This document shows positions 16,677 through 24,268 of a stretch of 30,634 nucleotides of DNA, piece by piece. Numbering within the stretch: position 1 is the stretch's first letter; every line of letters begins with the position of its first letter. Both the position numbers and the translations under genes were made by a program. The DNA is from a virus (lineage: Duplodnaviria > Heunggongvirae > Uroviricota > Caudoviricetes). Below the pieces are notes generated by a model. The model was given only the letters and a program-made list of their open reading frames with translations. It ran no database searches and was not told the DNA's origin. The stretch lies in IMG/VR virus record IMGVR_UViG_2563366824_000009, one strand, 5' to 3'.

Positions 16677-17106
16677 CGCCGTGCCGCAGCTCCGAAATAA
16701 TCCCGATATGCTGCGCCTTTTTGCCGACAACGGCCATACCGATTCCCGACTGGCGAGCTCGCTGTCGTTTGAAAAGGTGTACGTGCTTAACGTGGTGGTG
16801 ACCGACTTCACCGGTGACCTTGATTTGATATTCGTGCCGGTGCAGGCGTGGCTGCGTGAACATCAGCCGGACATTATGACCACCGACGACGGGCGGGAAA
16901 AAGGATTCACCTGGATTATTGATATCAATAACGACGATTCGCTCGATATCAGTATCAGCCTGAGGCTCACCGAGCGCACACTCGTCAAAGAGGTCGACGG
17001 CGCGCTGCACGTCAGCTATGCCCCTGAGCCGCCACTGCCTGAGCCGGTGACGCGCCCGGTCGAGCTGTACGTTAACGGCGAACTGGTGAGTAAGTGGGAT
17101 GAGTGA
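16639..17106 (+). CDS. R: Tail completion protein R (P2 gpR family)
   Basis: 155 aa from ATG 16639, same as P2 R; the ORF-track start at 16630 is an alternative. Confidence 0.8.
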   Translation: MQKHKSLRKALINAVPQLRNNPDMLRLFADNGHTDSRLASSLSFEKVYVLNVVVTDFTGDLDLIFVPVQAWLREHQPDIMTTDDGREKGFTWIIDINNDDSLDISISLRLTERTLVKEVDGALHVSYAPEPPLPEPVTRPVELYVNGELVSKWDE

Positions 17107-17545
17107 ATTAACCGTGCTGCAGGAACGCCTTGCCGGTCTGATTGCCAGCCTGTCACCGGCGGCACGTCGGCAAATGGCGGCTGAGATTGCGAAAAAGCTG
17201 CGTACCAGTCAGCAACAGCGTATCAAGCGCCAGCAGGCACCCGACGGCACCCCGTATGCGGCACGAAAGCGCCAGCCGGTGCGGAGCAAGAAAGGTCGGA
17301 TTAAACGTGAAATGTTCGCCAAACTGCGCACCAGTCGCTTTATGAAAGCCAAAGGCAGCGACAGTGCGGCGGTGGTGGAGTTTACCGGCAAGGTGCAGCG
17401 CATGGCGCGGGTTCATCAGTACGGCCTCAAAGACCGGCCAAACCGTAACAGCCGGGATGTGCAGTACGAGGCGCGCCCGTTGCTCGGTTTCAATAGTATA
17501 GATATGAGAATTATTGAGCGGTTAATAATTGGGGCTTTGGATTAA
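17099..17545 (+). CDS. S: Tail completion protein S (P2 gpS family), C-terminal approx 17 aa encoded by AT-rich inserted DNA
   Basis: 148 aa; conserved body, then divergent AT-rich-encoded tail NSIDMRIIERLIIGALD. Confidence 0.85.
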   Translation: MSELTVLQERLAGLIASLSPAARRQMAAEIAKKLRTSQQQRIKRQQAPDGTPYAARKRQPVRSKKGRIKREMFAKLRTSRFMKAKGSDSAAVVEFTGKVQRMARVHQYGLKDRPNRNSRDVQYEARPLLGFNSIDMRIIERLIIGALD

Positions 17546-17573
17546 TTATGATCTAATATATTATTTTGTGATG

Positions 17574-17602
17574 AGGCTGGATAAACACCAGCCTTGATTT
17601 TA
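17574..17602 (+). terminator. Hairpin (AGGCTGG / CCAGCCT, 7-nt loop) followed by T-rich run; shared 3' end of S and the convergent cassette
   Basis: Stem 17574..17580 with 17588..17594, then TGATTTTAT. Confidence 0.4.
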
Positions 17603-18244
17603 TAGTTTGAAATCTGCGTAATTATCAATAACCTCTAGAACACCGCTGATGTTGTTATCTCTGCGCCAATTCCAATTGCCATGTATCAAATTTGCATTAG
17701 AATAAAGATATCTAAGGAACTGAGATGGTAAGAGTGGTTTGTTGCATAAAAATTCATCATAACTATTACTCATATACCACACATATCCATTTTTAATGTC
17801 AAAACTTAAATTCTCACCTTCAATTTTCTTAAAGTTAATTTCTTTATTTAGAGCATTTTCAAACTCTTGCGTATAATAAACACAGTGTATATGAGCGTGA
17901 GAAATGCACCCTCCCGAACGATCTATATTTTCACCTGCTCCGCTTTCAAAGAAAATTAGAGATCTACCAGATTGGTGGATTATAAATTCATTAAGTTCTC
18001 GCAGAATCTCCTTGCCATTACTCCGGGTATCTCGATCAAGAGCAGCAAAGGAGTTGATATGCCGCTTAGGAATCAGCATCACATGCGAATTATTTAGCGG
18101 GCCAATACTAGGTACAATTAGAAAATCATTTGTTTCTGCAATGATATTTTTCTTGTCATTTACGATTTCATCGTATCCTTTGATAAGGCTAATGCCATTT
18201 ATTTCATCGCATATTCCACAGAACGAATTACAAGAATTATTCAC
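17600..18244 (-). CDS. HIT (histidine-triad) family protein with N-terminal Cys cluster and about 90-aa C-terminal extension; cargo gene
   Basis: 214 aa; GTG start with AGGAGA SD 8 nt upstream; C-x3-C-x2-C near N-terminus; HIT-like HVMLIPKRH and canonical H-phi-H-phi-H-phi-phi motif HAHIHCV (nt 17885..17899); AT-rich. Confidence 0.7.
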   Translation of the reverse strand: MNNSCNSFCGICDEINGISLIKGYDEIVNDKKNIIAETNDFLIVPSIGPLNNSHVMLIPKRHINSFAALDRDTRSNGKEILRELNEFIIHQSGRSLIFFESGAGENIDRSGGCISHAHIHCVYYTQEFENALNKEINFKKIEGENLSFDIKNGYVWYMSNSYDEFLCNKPLLPSQFLRYLYSNANLIHGNWNWRRDNNISGVLEVIDNYADFKL

Positions 18245-18803
18245 GTTTATTGTCTCCTGGTTTTTTAGGGAGCAATTTTTCAGCCCAAGATGCGAGTCGG
18301 CTTAGAACTAAGTCTGAAAAATATCCTAATATAAAACAAATCGAGAATGCAATTTTGGTCTTACCATGCCCTTTAATGGAGGATACAAACGTATCCGGAG
18401 ATAATAGCGTATAAGAACAAAAAGCCACTAAAGCAGCTAAGAACGGAATAAAAATCCTCCAGTAGAACTTATGGGATTCCCAAGGGAAATTATACTGATT
18501 GTTTTTCCCTCTAGCAGTTACTCTATAAAACCATTTTGCATTATACACCCACCCTCCAAAAAAACCGCCAAGAATAGAAAACAAAGATATTTTATTATTA
18601 TATGTCAGCTCAAAAACAAATTGAAAAAGAAAGGCGAGAATGCAACCTATTACAAAAAGAACTATTAAATAAGCAAATTCGAATTTTATTTGTTCACAAT
18701 CGTTATTAAAATAAGGCACAACCTCATCATCGCCTAAGGTTTTTTTTCTTTCAGTCATTTGCCAAACACCTTCATTTTTTACTGTGAGCCAGGGTAATTG
18801 CAT
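18237..18803 (-). CDS. Integral membrane protein (about 4 predicted TM helices), first gene of two-gene cargo operon
   Basis: About 188 aa from ATG 18803 (alternative start at 18761 with AGGTG SD); hydrophobic segments FAYLIVLFVIGCILAFLFQFVF, ISLFSILGGFFGGWVY, YWRIFIPFLAALVAFCSYTLL, KIAFSICFILGYFSDLVL; its stop overlaps the GTG start of the HIT gene. Confidence 0.65.
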   Translation of the reverse strand: MQLPWLTVKNEGVWQMTERKKTLGDDEVVPYFNNDCEQIKFEFAYLIVLFVIGCILAFLFQFVFELTYNNKISLFSILGGFFGGWVYNAKWFYRVTARGKNNQYNFPWESHKFYWRIFIPFLAALVAFCSYTLLSPDTFVSSIKGHGKTKIAFSICFILGYFSDLVLSRLASWAEKLLPKKPGDNKRE

Positions 18804-18934
18804 ATTCAACTTGGCTATTCTAATTAATTCTCACAAGATTTCATAGATGTTGAGTAGACCTCTCAGAAGTTGTTTCATTCCTCACAGAATCCATCTCGAT
18901 TGCCACTAATCTTGCCGGGCGTCATCCTTCCCAT

Positions 18935-19570
18935 ATGAAAAATCTAAATTCTTTGCAAGAAATCGCACGCGCGATCCGAAATCTCATCCGTACCGGCATC
19001 GTTAGCGACGTAGACCTCAAGGAGGGGCTATGTCGTATCCAGACCGGGGGGATGCAAACCACTTGGCTGAACTGGCTGACCACCCGAGCCGGTCGTTCGC
19101 GGACGTGGTGGGCTCCCTCGGTCGGTGAGCAGGTTCTGCTGCTGGCAATCGGTGGCGAGCTTGATACCGCTTTCGTGCTGCCGGGTATTTTCTCCGACGA
19201 TAATCCCGCCCCGTCTGCCTCGGCGGATGCGTGGCATGTGGCTTTCCCTGATGGTGCGGTCATTGAGTACGAGCCCGAAACCGGCGCGCTGACGGTCAGC
19301 GGCATAAAAACGGCCGACGTGACGGCATCGGAGTCCATCACCGCAACCGTACCGCTGGTACTGGTGAAAGCCTCGACCAGTATCACCCTCGACACCCCGG
19401 AGGTGATTTGCACCAATAAGCTAACGACGGCGACGCTTGAGGTGCAGAAAGGCGGCAAGATGAGCGGCAATATCGAACATACCGGCGGGTCACTGTCGTC
19501 TAATGGCAAGGTACTCCACACCCATAAACACCCGGGCGACAGCGGCGGGCAAACGGGGGCACCGTTATGA
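18935..19570 (+). CDS. V: Baseplate spike/assembly protein V (P2 gpV family)
   Basis: 211 aa, same as P2 V; close match to recalled P2 V sequence. Confidence 0.9.
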   Translation: MKNLNSLQEIARAIRNLIRTGIVSDVDLKEGLCRIQTGGMQTTWLNWLTTRAGRSRTWWAPSVGEQVLLLAIGGELDTAFVLPGIFSDDNPAPSASADAWHVAFPDGAVIEYEPETGALTVSGIKTADVTASESITATVPLVLVKASTSITLDTPEVICTNKLTTATLEVQKGGKMSGNIEHTGGSLSSNGKVLHTHKHPGDSGGQTGAPL

Positions 19571-20829: not shown

Positions 20830-21430
20830 CCGGCTATTACCCGTTGGCTCGTCGCCGCTGGAGGTCGCCGCCGCCGCTGCGTTCTCTGAGATTCAGCGCG
20901 TGCCGGTACCGCTGCGCACCCTGTGGAACTGGCGCACCTGCCCGGTAAAGCTGCTGCCGTATCTGGCGTGGGCGCTGTCGGTCGACAGGTGGGATGAGAA
21001 ATGGCCGGAGGCGACAAAGCGCAGCGTCTGCGCGTCCTCGTTTTTCGTCCATCAGCACAAAGGCACCATCAGCGCATTGCGTCGGGTCGTCGAGCCGCTC
21101 GGCTTTCTGATTGAGGTGCGCGAGTGGTGGCAACTCGACGAGGAGCCAGGCACATTCCGCCTCGTTGTTGGCGTCCTCGACAGCGGCATCACTGACGAAA
21201 TGTATCAGGAGCTTGAGCGCCTGATTGAAGACGCCAAACCGGCAAGTCGCCACCTGACCGGGCTGGCTATCAGTCTGAGCTCGACCGGCGAACTGTATGT
21301 CGGCGCGGGATGCTATCACGGCGACGCGCTGACTGTTTACCCCTACACCCCCGAGGAGATTGTCGTCGGCGGTGAATATTACCCGGCCTCGGCCATCCAT
21401 TTGATTGATAACCTGAGAGTAAACGCATGA
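20822..21430 (+). CDS. I: Baseplate/tail protein I
   Basis: 202 aa; LLPVGSSPLE...VPLRTLW...LLPYLAWALSVDRWDE matches recalled P2 I. Confidence 0.85.
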   Translation: MNDRLLPVGSSPLEVAAAAAFSEIQRVPVPLRTLWNWRTCPVKLLPYLAWALSVDRWDEKWPEATKRSVCASSFFVHQHKGTISALRRVVEPLGFLIEVREWWQLDEEPGTFRLVVGVLDSGITDEMYQELERLIEDAKPASRHLTGLAISLSSTGELYVGAGCYHGDALTVYPYTPEEIVVGGEYYPASAIHLIDNLRVNA

Positions 21431-22491
21431 CCGCAAAATATTTTGCCATTCTGACCAATCAGGGCGCGGCGCGGCTGGCGAACGCGGCGGCACTCGGTAC
21501 CAAACTCAACCTGACGCAGATGGCCGTCGGTGATGCGAATGGTTCGTTGCCGACCCCTGAGCCGGCGCAGACGAAGCTCATTAACCAGAAACGCATCGCG
21601 CCGCTGAACCTGCTGACCGTTGACCCGGCCAATACCAGTCAGATTATCGCGGAACAGATTATTCCCGAGAATGAAGGTGGTTTCTGGATCCGCGAGATTG
21701 GTCTCTATGACGATGATGGTATTCTGATTGCCGTGGCGAACTGTCCGGAGACCTACAAGCCACAACTGCAGGAGGGAAGCGGTCGCACGCAGACCATTCG
21801 CATGATTCTGATTGTGTCGAGCACATCGGCAATCACCCTGAAAATCGACCCGGCAGTCGTGCTGGCAACGCGCCAGTATGTCGACGACAAGGTTATCGAG
21901 GTGAAAGGATATGCTGATGACCTGATGAAAAAACATGTTGAGGCCGCCAATCCACACAAGCAGTACCCGTTAATCGCTAATGCTCTGAAAGAAATGGTTG
22001 ACGCGGGACTGGTCGGCGACGTTCTTAAAAACCTTGGTTTGGGAGAAGGTGCTCCAGCTATTGGCGTTCCGTTCTTCTGGCCGTCCGCTGCAATGCCAAA
22101 TACTGTAATCGATAGCTGGTCCAGTATGGTGTTTTTGAAGTTCAACGGGGCGAAATTTTCTGCCTCTGATTACCCTGTGCTGGCAAAAGTGTTTCCTTCG
22201 CTGGTATTACCTGAAGCCCGCGGTGATTTCATTCGTATCTGGGATGATGGGCGAGGGGCGGACAGTGGGCGAGCATTATTAAGCTGGCAGGCAGCAACAG
22301 CTTTATCGCAATTTGGCGGTAATTATCCAGAAGGGTCCGGCCATGCGATTGCTGATTACGATGGAATATCAGCACACCAACCAGGTTTCTCTCGATTTCA
22401 GTACACCAGTAACTCAGTAGGAGATGGTGTTAATTTTATTGCCGTCAGACCACGTAACATTGCATTTAACTTTCTGGTGAGGGCTAAATAA
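21427..22491 (+). CDS. H: Tail fibre protein H; constant N-terminal part plus invertible C-terminal segment (current orientation)
   Basis: 354 aa; crossover site lies inside the gene at 22022..22047; C-terminal variable part downstream. Confidence 0.85.
   Translation: MTAKYFAILTNQGAARLANAAALGTKLNLTQMAVGDANGSLPTPEPAQTKLINQKRIAPLNLLTVDPANTSQIIAEQIIPENEGGFWIREIGLYDDDGILIAVANCPETYKPQLQEGSGRTQTIRMILIVSSTSAITLKIDPAVVLATRQYVDDKVIEVKGYADDLMKKHVEAANPHKQYPLIANALKEMVDAGLVGDVLKNLGLGEGAPAIGVPFFWPSAAMPNTVIDSWSSMVFLKFNGAKFSASDYPVLAKVFPSLVLPEARGDFIRIWDDGRGADSGRALLSWQAATALSQFGGNYPEGSGHAIADYDGISAHQPGFSRFQYTSNSVGDGVNFIAVRPRNIAFNFLVRAK
22022..22047 (+). other. Gin/Hin/Cin-type inversion crossover site (left) TTCTTAAAAACCTTGGTTTGGGAGAA
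   Basis: 26-bp site with hix/gix-like dyad (AAACC-N-GGTTT); inverted partner at 23844..23869 shares 21 of 26 positions. Confidence 0.7.
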
Positions 22492-23084
22492 TGAAACCTG
22501 TTTTTGATGAAAATGGACTGGCTACAGTGCCGGGTGATATGCGTTGTTTTTATTATGATGCAGTAACGTATGAATATACGGGCTGGTCTGATGAATATAT
22601 TAATACTGGTGTAAGTATGCCCGCCTGTTCCACTGGTATTGACCCGGGCGAAAACATTCCGGGAAAAGTGGCAGTATTTACAGGTAAGGGATGGAGCCAT
22701 GAAGAAGACCATCGCAATGAGACTGTTTACTCAATCGAAAATGGTGCTGCTGTTACAGTGGATTATATCGGTGCCATCAAAAACGGTTATGTCACGCTTT
22801 CACCGTTAACGCCATATGATAAATGGGATGGTGAGAAATGGGTGACAGATACTGAGGCACAACACGGTGCCGCAGTAGAAGCGGCAGAAGCACAGCGCCA
22901 GTCACTGATTGATGCAGCAATGGCTTCCATCAGTCTGATTCAGCTGAAATTACAGGCCGGGCGGAAGCTGACGCAGGCAGAAACCACCCGGCTTAACGCC
23001 GTGCTTGATTACATTGACGCGGTGACGGCAACAGATACGAGCACCGCGCCGGATGTCATCTGGCCTGAACTGCCGGAGGCGTAG
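22491..23084 (+). CDS. G: Tail fibre assembly protein (chaperone) for current H variant
   Basis: 197 aa; directly downstream of H; C-terminal ...TAPDVIWPELPEA. Confidence 0.8.
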   Translation: MKPVFDENGLATVPGDMRCFYYDAVTYEYTGWSDEYINTGVSMPACSTGIDPGENIPGKVAVFTGKGWSHEEDHRNETVYSIENGAAVTVDYIGAIKNGYVTLSPLTPYDKWDGEKWVTDTEAQHGAAVEAAEAQRQSLIDAAMASISLIQLKLQAGRKLTQAETTRLNAVLDYIDAVTATDTSTAPDVIWPELPEA

Positions 23085-23496
23085 GCCATTCAATATCTGG
23101 CGCACCGGAAGTATCGACCAGTTCCAGTGCGTCCAGATAATCCAGCCACAAATTATATTGCGCCAGTTCCTCACCTTTCAGGCGACCAATCGCCGCTTTA
23201 CCAGGCCATTGCTTACTGTTTATGTATTCGTTGACCTGATTAATCAATTGCTGCTTTTCCAGTTCGGCTGCGGCAATTTGTTCCTCATGAGTTGGCGGTG
23301 GAATATCAATCCATGCTGGCATTCCGTCGATGACACCTCTGTACTTTCCTTCTGGTGCTTCCTTCATAAATTCAGCGGCAGCAGTGTCGTCAATTTCGAT
23401 TCCATCATCAGGCCATTTCCCCGCTTCCTGATAAGCAATTTTAAGCTCCACAGGGAAAAACGCATTTTTATCAGCACTGAAAATATATTTCTGCAT
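23056..23496 (-). CDS. Alternative tail fibre assembly protein (for inverted orientation)
   Basis: 146 aa, convergent with G and overlapping its 3' end; C-terminus ...SGAPDIEWPTPPAVQAR parallels G C-terminus. Confidence 0.75.
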   Translation of the reverse strand: MQKYIFSADKNAFFPVELKIAYQEAGKWPDDGIEIDDTAAAEFMKEAPEGKYRGVIDGMPAWIDIPPPTHEEQIAAAELEKQQLINQVNEYINSKQWPGKAAIGRLKGEELAQYNLWLDYLDALELVDTSGAPDIEWPTPPAVQAR

Positions 23497-23498
23497 TT

Positions 23499-23852
23499 CT
23501 ACCGTCCTATCGAAATATAACTGAATCTGTATTGTTGAGAGATATCACTGATTGCCACGCGCCACGCTGAATTACTGATATGTTCAAAATTTACAGATAA
23601 AACCAGCGGTGCAGGATTCGACGGTTCTGACTGAACGGCATCAGACATGACACTGACTGAAACAAGCGGTTGATTAGGGAATGGTATAGGGAAGTGTCCA
23701 CTGATAATGCGGGTCGTGTTCCCTGAAAAAGTGCCAAACTGAACAATATATCCACCTGGTAGCCTGAACCATCCCGAGCCAGAAGCGAATGCTCCCATAT
23801 CCGGTATCTGATTTTCCCCTGTCCCCACATTCCTTCTTGCCGCTTCTCCCAA
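23499..23852 (-). CDS. Promoterless alternative tail fibre C-terminal segment (fused to H constant region after inversion)
   Basis: Open frame on minus strand running into the right crossover site; reads in frame with H across the shared GLGE codons; no independent ATG or SD. Confidence 0.7.
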   Translation of the reverse strand: MGEAARRNVGTGENQIPDMGAFASGSGWFRLPGGYIVQFGTFSGNTTRIISGHFPIPFPNQPLVSVSVMSDAVQSEPSNPAPLVLSVNFEHISNSAWRVAISDISQQYRFSYISIGR

Positions 23853-23869
23853 ACCAACCTTTTAGAAAA
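23844..23869 (-). other. Gin/Hin/Cin-type inversion crossover site (right) TTCTCCCAAACCAACCTTTTAGAAAA
   Basis: Reverse complement TTTTCTAAAAGGTTGGTTTGGGAGAA matches the left site over the right half. Confidence 0.7.
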
Positions 23870-23923
23870 TGCAGATATTCCGTTCAGCTGGCATGTTCCC
23901 GACTTTTTACCGGGTTATTTCTC

Positions 23924-24170
23924 ATGTTTATCGGTTATGTACGTGTATCAACAAATGACCAGAACACCGCATTACAGCGAAATGAACTGGAGTGCGCAGG
24001 ATGTGAGCTGATTTTCGAAGATAAAATCAGCGGCAAAACATCAATCAGACTGGCCGGGGCTAAAGAGGTTACTCAGAACCTTGTCAGAGGGCGATACGCT
24101 TGTGGTCTGGAAACTGGATCGCCTCGGGTATCTCAACGCTATACAAACAATTTCCCGCATCCGTTGCTGA
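23924..24170 (+). pseudogene. Serine DNA invertase (Gin/Pin/Hin family) remnant: frameshifted and 3'-truncated
   Basis: MFIGYVRVSTNDQNTALQRNELECAGCELIFEDKISGKTS in frame, then homology (DWPGLKRLL...GDTLVVWKLDRLG) continues in another frame and stops; about 110 C-terminal codons including the DNA-binding domain are absent. Confidence 0.75.
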
Positions 24171-24268
24171 TGTCTCAATGTGTCAGACATCGCCCAACAC
24201 TGACAAATAGCCCCTCAACAGACCAGCCAGGACAATAACACTTGCCCACTAACCACGGAGTTAACCGG

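Follow-up and report, generated by a model that had tools for sequence, protein, structure and literature searches.

How can two tail genes of a phage, S and V, both remain intact open reading frames (ORFs) when the edges of the AT-rich cassette that separates them lie inside their coding ends? The question is raised by IMG/VR virus record IMGVR_UViG_2563366824_000009, a stretch of 30,634 nucleotides (nt), hereafter called the window, which is a 186-type (Peduoviridae; 186/P2-like) Escherichia coli prophage. Its gene order, R-S-island-V-W-J, is collinear with that of phage 186 and of many isolated 186-like phages, and the S-V synteny is shared by the window, 186, and P2. The island is 1.39 kb long and AT-rich, with a GC content of 0.31 to 0.39 over positions ~17500 to 18900 compared with ~0.6 in the flanks. 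In our interpretation, it probably arrived together with the 3' end of S and the 5' end of V, by homologous-recombination exchange of the whole S-V block between P2-like phages. The parts of S and V concerned are the following.

17099-17545, plus strand: S, tail completion gene, homologue of 186 gene O and P2 S; 148 amino acids (aa), C-terminal end NSIDMRIIERLIIGALD
17099-17491, plus strand: S codons 1-131, resident 186-like part; DNA identity 97.7% to 613R3 and 95.9% to Midge
17483-17493: left junction interval, S codons 129-132, at the end of the conserved ...ARPLLGF; 17482 is the last site differing from Midge before it
17492-17545, plus strand: cassette-linked S tail, codons 132-148 (NSIDMRIIERLIIGALD) and stop; AT-rich, a diverged homologue of the C-terminal helix
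18935-19570, plus strand: V, baseplate spike, 211 aa; Pfam Phage_base_V, Phage_spike, and Apex
18935-19063, plus strand: cassette-linked V head, codons 1-43 (MKNLNSLQEIARAIRNLIRTGIVSDVDLKEGLCRIQTGGMQTT)
19064-19083: right junction interval; identity to the local phages resumes at 19064, and in the comparison with locus L135 it drops from 90% to 71% around 19080
19064-19570, plus strand: V codons 44-211, resident 186-like part; 99.6% DNA identity to 613R3

The junctions were located by comparison with Midge and 186, two viable relatives that carry no cargo at this site (an indirect hint that the cargo may be dispensable for lytic growth), and with 613R3, a 97%-identical phage with different cargo (a pentapeptide-repeat-type protein, named after the RefSeq annotation of matching E. 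coli loci). In nucleotide alignments, S of the window was near-identical to that of all three phages through 17492. The first mismatch of the diverged stretch was 17493, the second base of S codon 132. From there, the DNA identity of the S tail (codons 132-148) fell to 45% for Midge and 53% for 613R3. On the other side of the island, the V head was 64% identical to both Midge and 613R3, compared with 90% to L135 and 80% to L137, two loci with homologous cargo, and identity to Midge, 186, and 613R3 resumed at 19064. Between the two junctions, the window and 613R3 were 53 to 64% identical or unalignable; the flanks were 97.7% and 99.6% identical.

A reading of this DNA from its letters alone, which we refer to as the sequence-only reading, had noticed that the 3' end of S is AT-rich and continuous with the cassette (GC 0.31, compared with 0.60 in the body of the gene), and its coordinates for this segment proved correct within 2 to 3 nt. 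It had also described the first codons of V as AT-rich, which agrees with a GC content of 0.21 over eight codons. Its placement of the boundaries inside the coding ends of two open genes stands for both S and V. However, the V junction lies near codon 43 and not near codon 8, 35 codons further in than supposed, because composition alone misplaces it: divergence on the V side extends through largely GC-normal DNA to 19063. The event was therefore a replacement, in which ~254 nt of the empty-site allele gave way to 1571 nt (17493-19063), rather than a simple insertion.

The S protein is 91 to 92% identical to that of 186 and belongs to the 186 gene-O type; P2 S, to which the sequence-only reading had matched its body, is not close. 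With its tail included, S is a full-length member of its family, above the curated cut-offs and including the C-terminus. It matched Pfam Phage_tail_S (PF05069) with 119.8 bits (cut-off, 24.3), residues 4-147 covering profile positions 3-147 of 148, and TIGR01635 (tail_comp_S) with 169.8 bits (cut-off, 37.65) over residues 3-147. The composition of the tail (GC 0.31; GC at third codon positions [GC3] 0.29) is that of the cargo genes (GC3 0.28 to 0.30), as opposed to the S body (GC 0.60, GC3 0.68) or the canonical tail of Midge (GC3 0.72).

Nine GC-normal tails, taken from 186-like, Serratia, Yersinia, Pseudomonas, Rhodocyclaceae, and P2 phages, served as references for in-register scoring of the window tail. 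Its mean BLOSUM62 score was 21.4, a value reached by a single tail shuffle out of 20,000 and by none of 20,000 peptides encoded by stop-free random DNA of island composition. Residues D135, I139, E140, I143, I144, and L147 of the family helix are kept, four of them (D135, E140, I143, and L147) also in a four-way protein alignment, and conservation across tails is confined to the hydrophobic face of the helix. AlphaFold2 predicted a helix at residues 133-147 with a predicted local distance difference test score of 85 to 94. The whole-protein model was poor (predicted template modeling score, 0.29), its input was shallow (34 sequences, all at least 84% identical), and only the C-terminal helix was taken from it. 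A sequence search of S against all PDB chains gave no match at an E value of 1 or less. The tail is a diverged, genuine, in-register homologue of the normal C-terminal helix and not read-through; what had been taken for an S end rewritten by the insertion is better described as an allelic swap of homologous gene ends.

The pattern is general. We collected 125 loci with S relatives from IMG/VR and GTDB genomes and measured the gap from S stop to V start as well as the S tail. The 186-like group, defined by an S at least 86% identical, comprised 90 loci that are not phylogenetically independent: 71 empty sites with a gap of 68 to 69 nt and 19 sites with cargo, which fell into 14 distinct sequence variants. 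The canonical tail TRDDEQMIEDVII[RS]HLGK was present at 70 of the 71 empty sites and at only one of the 19 cargo-bearing sites (Fisher's exact test, p ~1e-16 for the 90 loci, kinship ignored). Across all loci, 37 distinct tails were counted in 45 cargo-bearing loci, and each recurring cargo size class that was compared had a tail of its own (SSSDLQKVESLIMDALCQRH for 1064 nt, TWNDEQAIEDIIISHLNK for 930 nt, and NADDVSVINDIIIGSLSK for 1164 nt). All 45 cargo-linked tails were 16 to 21 aa long, compared with a median of 9 codons for random read-through. Nearly all were AT-rich (GC 0.20 to 0.43), whereas tails of distant cargo-free lineages had a GC content of 0.46 to 0.56. In a database of 5.8 billion proteins, the 120 best S homologues, all at least 84% identical to the query, carried more than 50 different tails.

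The tail of the window itself was found only beside cargo consisting of a HIT-like protein and a membrane protein. Of 5426 complete E. coli genomes, 8 had it, and each of these carried the same cassette; it was also present at IMG/VR loci L004 and L005 and in six database proteins. The sequence-only reading had named the occurrence of this tail in cargo-free phages as the sign that it is ancestral; it was present in none of the 71 cargo-free 186-like loci and in none of the more distant cargo-free loci.

Among the 14 distinct cargo-bearing 186-like sequences, the left divergence of most began at ~17485-17495 in window coordinates. The exceptions were one variant that diverges in the middle of the tail, between TRDDEQM and VEQLIICWLSE, and L083, which shows no divergence. 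On the right side, most cassettes were back to consensus by V codon ~10 to 13, before the RAIRNLIR codons; the window cassette, which reaches V codon 43, is unusual. The left junctions of most cassette types lie within ~10 nt of one another, and the right ones vary from V codon ~10 to ~43.

Between the S tail and the V head, the block contains the following parts.

17546-17571: spacer from S stop to terminator; AT-rich; 92% identical to L135
17572-17596, plus strand: intrinsic terminator hairpin and T-run, found by terminator scan; 9-bp stem, then ATTTTAT
17600-18244, minus strand: cargo gene 2, HIT-superfamily; 214 aa, motif HAHIHCV
18237-18758, minus strand: cargo gene 1, small and hydrophobic, product probably in the membrane; start ATG at 18758, 173 aa
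18759-18934: intergenic region of the block, expected to hold the putative cargo promoter (minus strand) and the putative late V promoter (plus strand)

Relatives of this block were found in other backgrounds. At L135, the whole block is ~90% identical to that of the window (the two cargo genes, 90 to 92%) and adjoins a related tail, FSSIEKRTIEQMIIESLD, whereas the V body is only 71% identical. One and the same block is thus found in more than one V background, and its right junction again lies near 19064-19083. L137, a distant P2-like phage, has an S body with 71% DNA identity and carries homologous cargo (HIT, 76% identical; membrane protein, 82%). The same arrangement is present in Enterobacter sp. 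FB (L130) and in a decayed prophage of Pantoea multigeneris (L131/L132). Together, these loci point to an Enterobacter/Pantoea-type P2-like lineage as the possible donor. In Pantoea alfalfae-type contigs (L133:2987-4145 and L134:2033-3191), the pair lies in the gpA-portal (tin/old) hotspot, where the convergent gene is the putative portal gene. DNA homology of these contigs to the window is restricted to 17575-18758 and ends exactly at 18758. Because homology at this other P2 hotspot covers only the terminator and the two ORFs, the cargo core excludes the S tail. The cargo proper is accordingly 17575-18758, and the S tail, spacer, promoter region, and V head are S-V-specific "adaptor" parts.

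We consider it probable that such blocks are exchanged between co-resident or co-infecting P2-like phages. The exchanged unit is larger than the cargo: it takes in the last ~17 to 20 codons of S, then the O-operon terminator and the cargo, and finally the V-promoter region with the first ~10 to 43 codons of V. Crossovers would fall in whichever well-conserved DNA lies closest, namely the ...EARPLLGF codons of S on the left side and the ...RAIRNLIR... codons of V, or a point further in, on the right side. Each block would thereby supply its own versions, diverged yet functional, of the S C-terminal helix and the V N-terminus. In the window, a block with the membrane-protein and HIT-like genes, whose nearest relatives lie in prophages of the Enterobacter/Pantoea P2-like type, would have replaced 17493-19063 of a 186-like E. 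coli phage. In this interpretation, S and V both stay intact because homologous coding sequence was exchanged for homologous coding sequence. Such exchange accounts for the sharp steps in identity, for near-identical backbones with unrelated blocks (the window and 613R3), for one block in different backbones, and for junctions that differ between cassettes. It would also explain the lack of empty sites with non-canonical tails, since cargo would be lost by recombination with a phage whose site is empty, and the canonical tail would come back in the same step.

Several observations weigh against this interpretation or limit it. Recombination is deduced from the comparison of loci that are not independent samples. 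Cargo-linked tails (GC 0.20 to 0.39) are far more AT-rich than the tails of distant cargo-free lineages. Their composition is therefore not accounted for if such a lineage simply donated its tail; one has to suppose in addition that the tails have long resided next to AT-rich cargo or that the donors had low GC. L130, L131, and L137 carry related cargo, 75 to 77% identical, with tails that can barely be aligned to that of the window, which means that tails either change more rapidly than cargo or were exchanged in separate events. That left junctions cluster within ~10 nt could in part be due to selection on S function and not to the position of crossovers. Finally, P2 and L083 combine cargo with a GC-normal, near-canonical tail; tail replacement is thus not universal.

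The rate at which tails change bears on whether the tail of the window was exchanged at all. It could instead be the ancestral tail of its own S gene, which drifted rapidly toward AT under relaxed constraint because of its place beside AT-rich cargo, shielded from homogenising recombination. The comparison of the window tail with that of L135 (17492-17545 against L135:4394-4447) is compatible with this: all nine nucleotide differences are non-synonymous and none is synonymous, whereas the S bodies differ by 18 synonymous and 11 non-synonymous changes (hypergeometric p ~0.001 against the tail, for one pair only). We regard this as a hint, from a single pair, of relaxed or diversifying selection. 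Tails also outpace the linked cargo (83% identity compared with 91% for L135; for L130 and L137, cargo 75 to 82% identical and tails barely alignable at the DNA level), and they are conserved only on the hydrophobic face of the helix. What makes divergence in place unlikely is its abruptness: the S bodies of the window and 613R3 are 97.7% identical and their tails 53%, with the step confined to ~10 nt, too sharp for drift at 2% flank divergence. The V head, moreover, is nearer to the distant lineage with the same cargo (80%) than to the local phages (64%). Fast evolution of the tail is probably additional to exchange. The simplest reading of AT-rich, fast-changing tails is relaxed constraint off the hydrophobic face combined with AT-biased change or a low-GC donor pool.

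Illegitimate insertion of foreign AT-rich DNA into the ends of S and V, leaving a foreign tail that is open by chance or through selection, would fit the composition step at the boundary, the match in GC3 between tail and cargo, and the occurrence in the tail of codons rare in E. coli (ATA, AGA, and TTA). We nevertheless consider it quite unlikely. Neither shuffled tails (with one exception in 20,000) nor random AT-rich peptides aligned in register with the family helix as well as the window tail did, the narrow length range of all 45 cargo-linked tails is not that of read-through, and the profile matches reach the end of the protein. In addition, the V side was swapped for homologous V over 43 codons of largely GC-normal DNA, and the cargo core occurs at another hotspot without the tail.

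Insertion by a site-specific recombinase (Xer/dif-like, integron-like, or an icd-type 3'-end-restoring integrase) at a fixed site in S appears very improbable, in spite of the tight clustering of left junctions among most cassette types. Junction positions after F131 or in mid-tail on the left, and from V codon ~10 to ~43 on the right, are what recombination would yield and a fixed attachment site would not. A search for dif/cer-like (Xer) sites with up to 3 mismatches gave none, flanking direct or inverted repeats were limited to short AT-rich matches at chance level (for example, a 14-nt pair, 86% complementary, at 17505-17518 and 18820-18833), and no recombinase gene was present among the block ORFs and profile matches. 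In favour of such a system, Xer-type sites have been proposed for another P2 hotspot. Phage 21 and e14 integrate into icd and supply a substitute 3' end, in an integrase-mediated reaction at an attachment (att) site with flanking repeats. The window resembles these elements in that the incoming DNA brings its own diverged 3' end and the target gene stays functional. It differs from them in that its target is a phage gene and that neither a recombinase nor repeated att cores at both junctions, the features of icd/phage 21-type insertion, were found in the block. Lastly, we give hardly any credence to the idea that the gpS C-terminal helix is a hypervariable segment under diversifying selection whose function is tied to that of the neighbouring cargo (it could, for example, be a self-marker or an escape allele and hide this late structural protein from the prophage's own system or from those of rival P2-like phages or satellites), even though it would explain the tight tail-cargo linkage and the ratio of 0 synonymous to 9 non-synonymous changes in the one pair compared.

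The hairpin at 17572-17596 is well supported, with a fold energy of -19 kcal/mol (z = -3.6). It is predicted to end the S (O-operon) transcript and lies beside the 3' end of the convergent cargo operon. L130, L131, and L133 have a hairpin at the equivalent place with another stem sequence and with pairing retained. The spacer at 17546-17571 did not align with these three loci, where homology begins at 17574-17599, and seems to be part of the S-V block outside the cargo core. An Rfam scan of 17000-19500 gave no match. In the intergenic region upstream of V, a promoter-like site was detected on the minus strand at 18844-18817; the frequency of such sites did not exceed that in shuffles. At 18870-18886, a TTGT...ACA dyad is similar to the pV activator site annotated in P2. 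Its TTGT begins 65 nt upstream of the V ATG, which is the column that it occupies in cargo-free 186-like loci; the corresponding distance in P2 is 66 nt. The late V promoter thus appears to travel with the block. An overlap between the S tail and the activator site of the V promoter in phages with an empty site was ruled out, as TTGT begins directly after the S stop.

The product of cargo gene 2 scored barely above the Pfam cut-offs for HIT (23.4; cut-off, 21.5), DcpS_C (28.5; cut-off, 24), and CwfJ_C_1 (28.4; cut-off, 21), and from its triad motif and these profile scores it can be assigned to the HIT superfamily. It matches phrog_23000, a family of unknown function, and has homologues across Proteobacteria. 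Cargo gene 1 overlaps the HIT gene by 8 nt and matches phrog_22917. Its homologues were called at 173 aa and always precede the HIT gene. A scan of both cargo proteins against PADLOC-DB 2.0.0 gave no match at an E value of 0.01 or less, an NCBIfam scan of both returned nothing meaningful, and a literature search for a HIT-type defence system found nothing relevant.

Different cargo occupies the S-V site in other loci. The cassette of L093 encodes an AriA/PARIS-like ATPase and a partner, and that of L110 a PtuA/PDC-M01A Septu-like ATPase and a second ORF with conserved Cys/His motifs. L049 carries a PD-T4-7-like cassette, L075 PDC-S15, and L077 PDC-S31. The commonest S-V cassette in E. coli encodes a protein annotated by RefSeq as pentapeptide-repeat-containing, with no PADLOC match. 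The S-V site behaves as a defence hotspot because cassettes of relatives match PARIS, Septu, PD-T4-7, PDC-S15, and PDC-S31 models. For the HIT-like and membrane-protein pair, a role in defence may be suggested solely from these neighbouring cassette types.

The pair is also found beyond intact P2-like phages. Homologues in non-P2 prophage contexts (L138:2487-3645, L139:640-1798, and L141:2474-3639), with HIT proteins 56 to 69% identical, adjoin umuD/umuC-like genes and short isocitrate-dehydrogenase (icd) fragments, which suggests that there the pair lies in a prophage integrated at icd. We initially took L131/L132 for a different hotspot and dropped this assignment, as DNA alignment showed remnants of S and V and thus a decayed S-V site. 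S of L131 is a pseudogene. In L130, which also represents a decayed prophage, S has lost its 5' end and continues from a Cox-like N-terminus instead, with an integrase gene immediately adjacent (L130:4244-4747). The cargo pair is intact in both, suggesting that it was retained after decay of the phage.

The S-V site is the known P2 orf30 hotspot, and the case described here fits ordinary phage mosaicism. The orf30, TO, and Z regions are the three recognised sites of horizontally acquired genes in P2-like phages (PMC3091744). What the orf30 site holds differs between related phages, and one viable P2-like phage is described as having another ORF at this place, between S and V (PMC6823313). According to the annotation of the P2 record, S is followed there, as in the window, by a rho-independent terminator, an AT-rich non-essential gene on the opposite strand, the pV activator site, and V. 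In P2, however, the S tail, TGEDVQMIEEIILAHLER, has normal GC and AT-rich DNA begins downstream of the terminator, whereas the variable block of the window, like that of most 186-like loci with cargo, takes in both the S tail and the V head. The cargo differs as well, being the HIT-like and membrane-protein pair and not orf30.

Defence hotspots of P2-like phages have been treated in Rousset et al. 2022 (PMC9122126), in a preprint by Egorov and Atkinson (10.1101/2024.10.15.618418), and in a 2026 article in Nucleic Acids Research (PMC13586616). As far as the searched passages of these papers go, they describe a cos-proximal site (tin/old), Z/fun, a third hotspot adjacent to CI, and others "within the tail genes"; the S-V site resembles tin/old by cos and Z/fun in having variable AT-rich cargo amid core genes. 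The same passages mention neither gpS, gpV, or orf30 nor the replacement of coding ends of flanking genes. With the tin/old hotspot the S-V site shares even its cargo, as the same HIT/membrane-protein pair is found there in the Pantoea contigs.

A comparison can also be made with morons. The S-V island is likewise a putative extra transcription unit of deviant composition between genes that are adjacent in relatives, with sharp junctions and probable exchange by recombination. Classical morons, as reportedly described by Hendrix and colleagues together with the mosaic junctions of temperate phages, sit cleanly between genes. In the window, by contrast, each junction falls within a flanking structural gene, and the gene ends that were exchanged are homologous alleles.

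The result is a nucleotide-level map of one orf30-site cassette, in which the exchanged unit, as is usual at this site, includes the coding ends of both flanking tail genes. Current ideas on phage mosaicism are not overturned by it. That the unit of exchange extends to the hypervariable S C-terminal helix was new to us and is useful for the mining of hotspots. Pipelines that bound cargo by conserved flanking genes will misplace its limits at S-V and may split S into many protein clusters; the coding stretches for ...ARPLLGF and ...RAIRNLIR can serve as anchors for extraction of S-V cargo. The HIT-like and membrane-protein pair, an uncharacterised cassette at two P2 hotspots and in other prophages, is a reasonable phage-defence candidate.

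It should be noted that the window (30,634 bp) is about as long as the genome of phage 186 (30,624 bp) despite ~1.3 kb of additional cargo at S-V and must therefore lack, or have in shorter form, something of similar size elsewhere relative to 186. Separately from the S-V locus, the tail-fibre region at 22491-24238, where the GC content falls to 0.41 to 0.46, looks like an invertible segment. Genes in and next to this region are listed below.

21427-22491: tail-fibre gene, Phage_tail_fib
22491-23084, plus strand: fibre-assembly gene
23056-23496, minus strand: second fibre-assembly gene
23499-23852, minus strand: Gp53-like fibre C-terminus

The ORF at 23789-24238 gave only a partial match to a Resolvase N-terminal domain and may represent a truncated Cin/Gin-type invertase.

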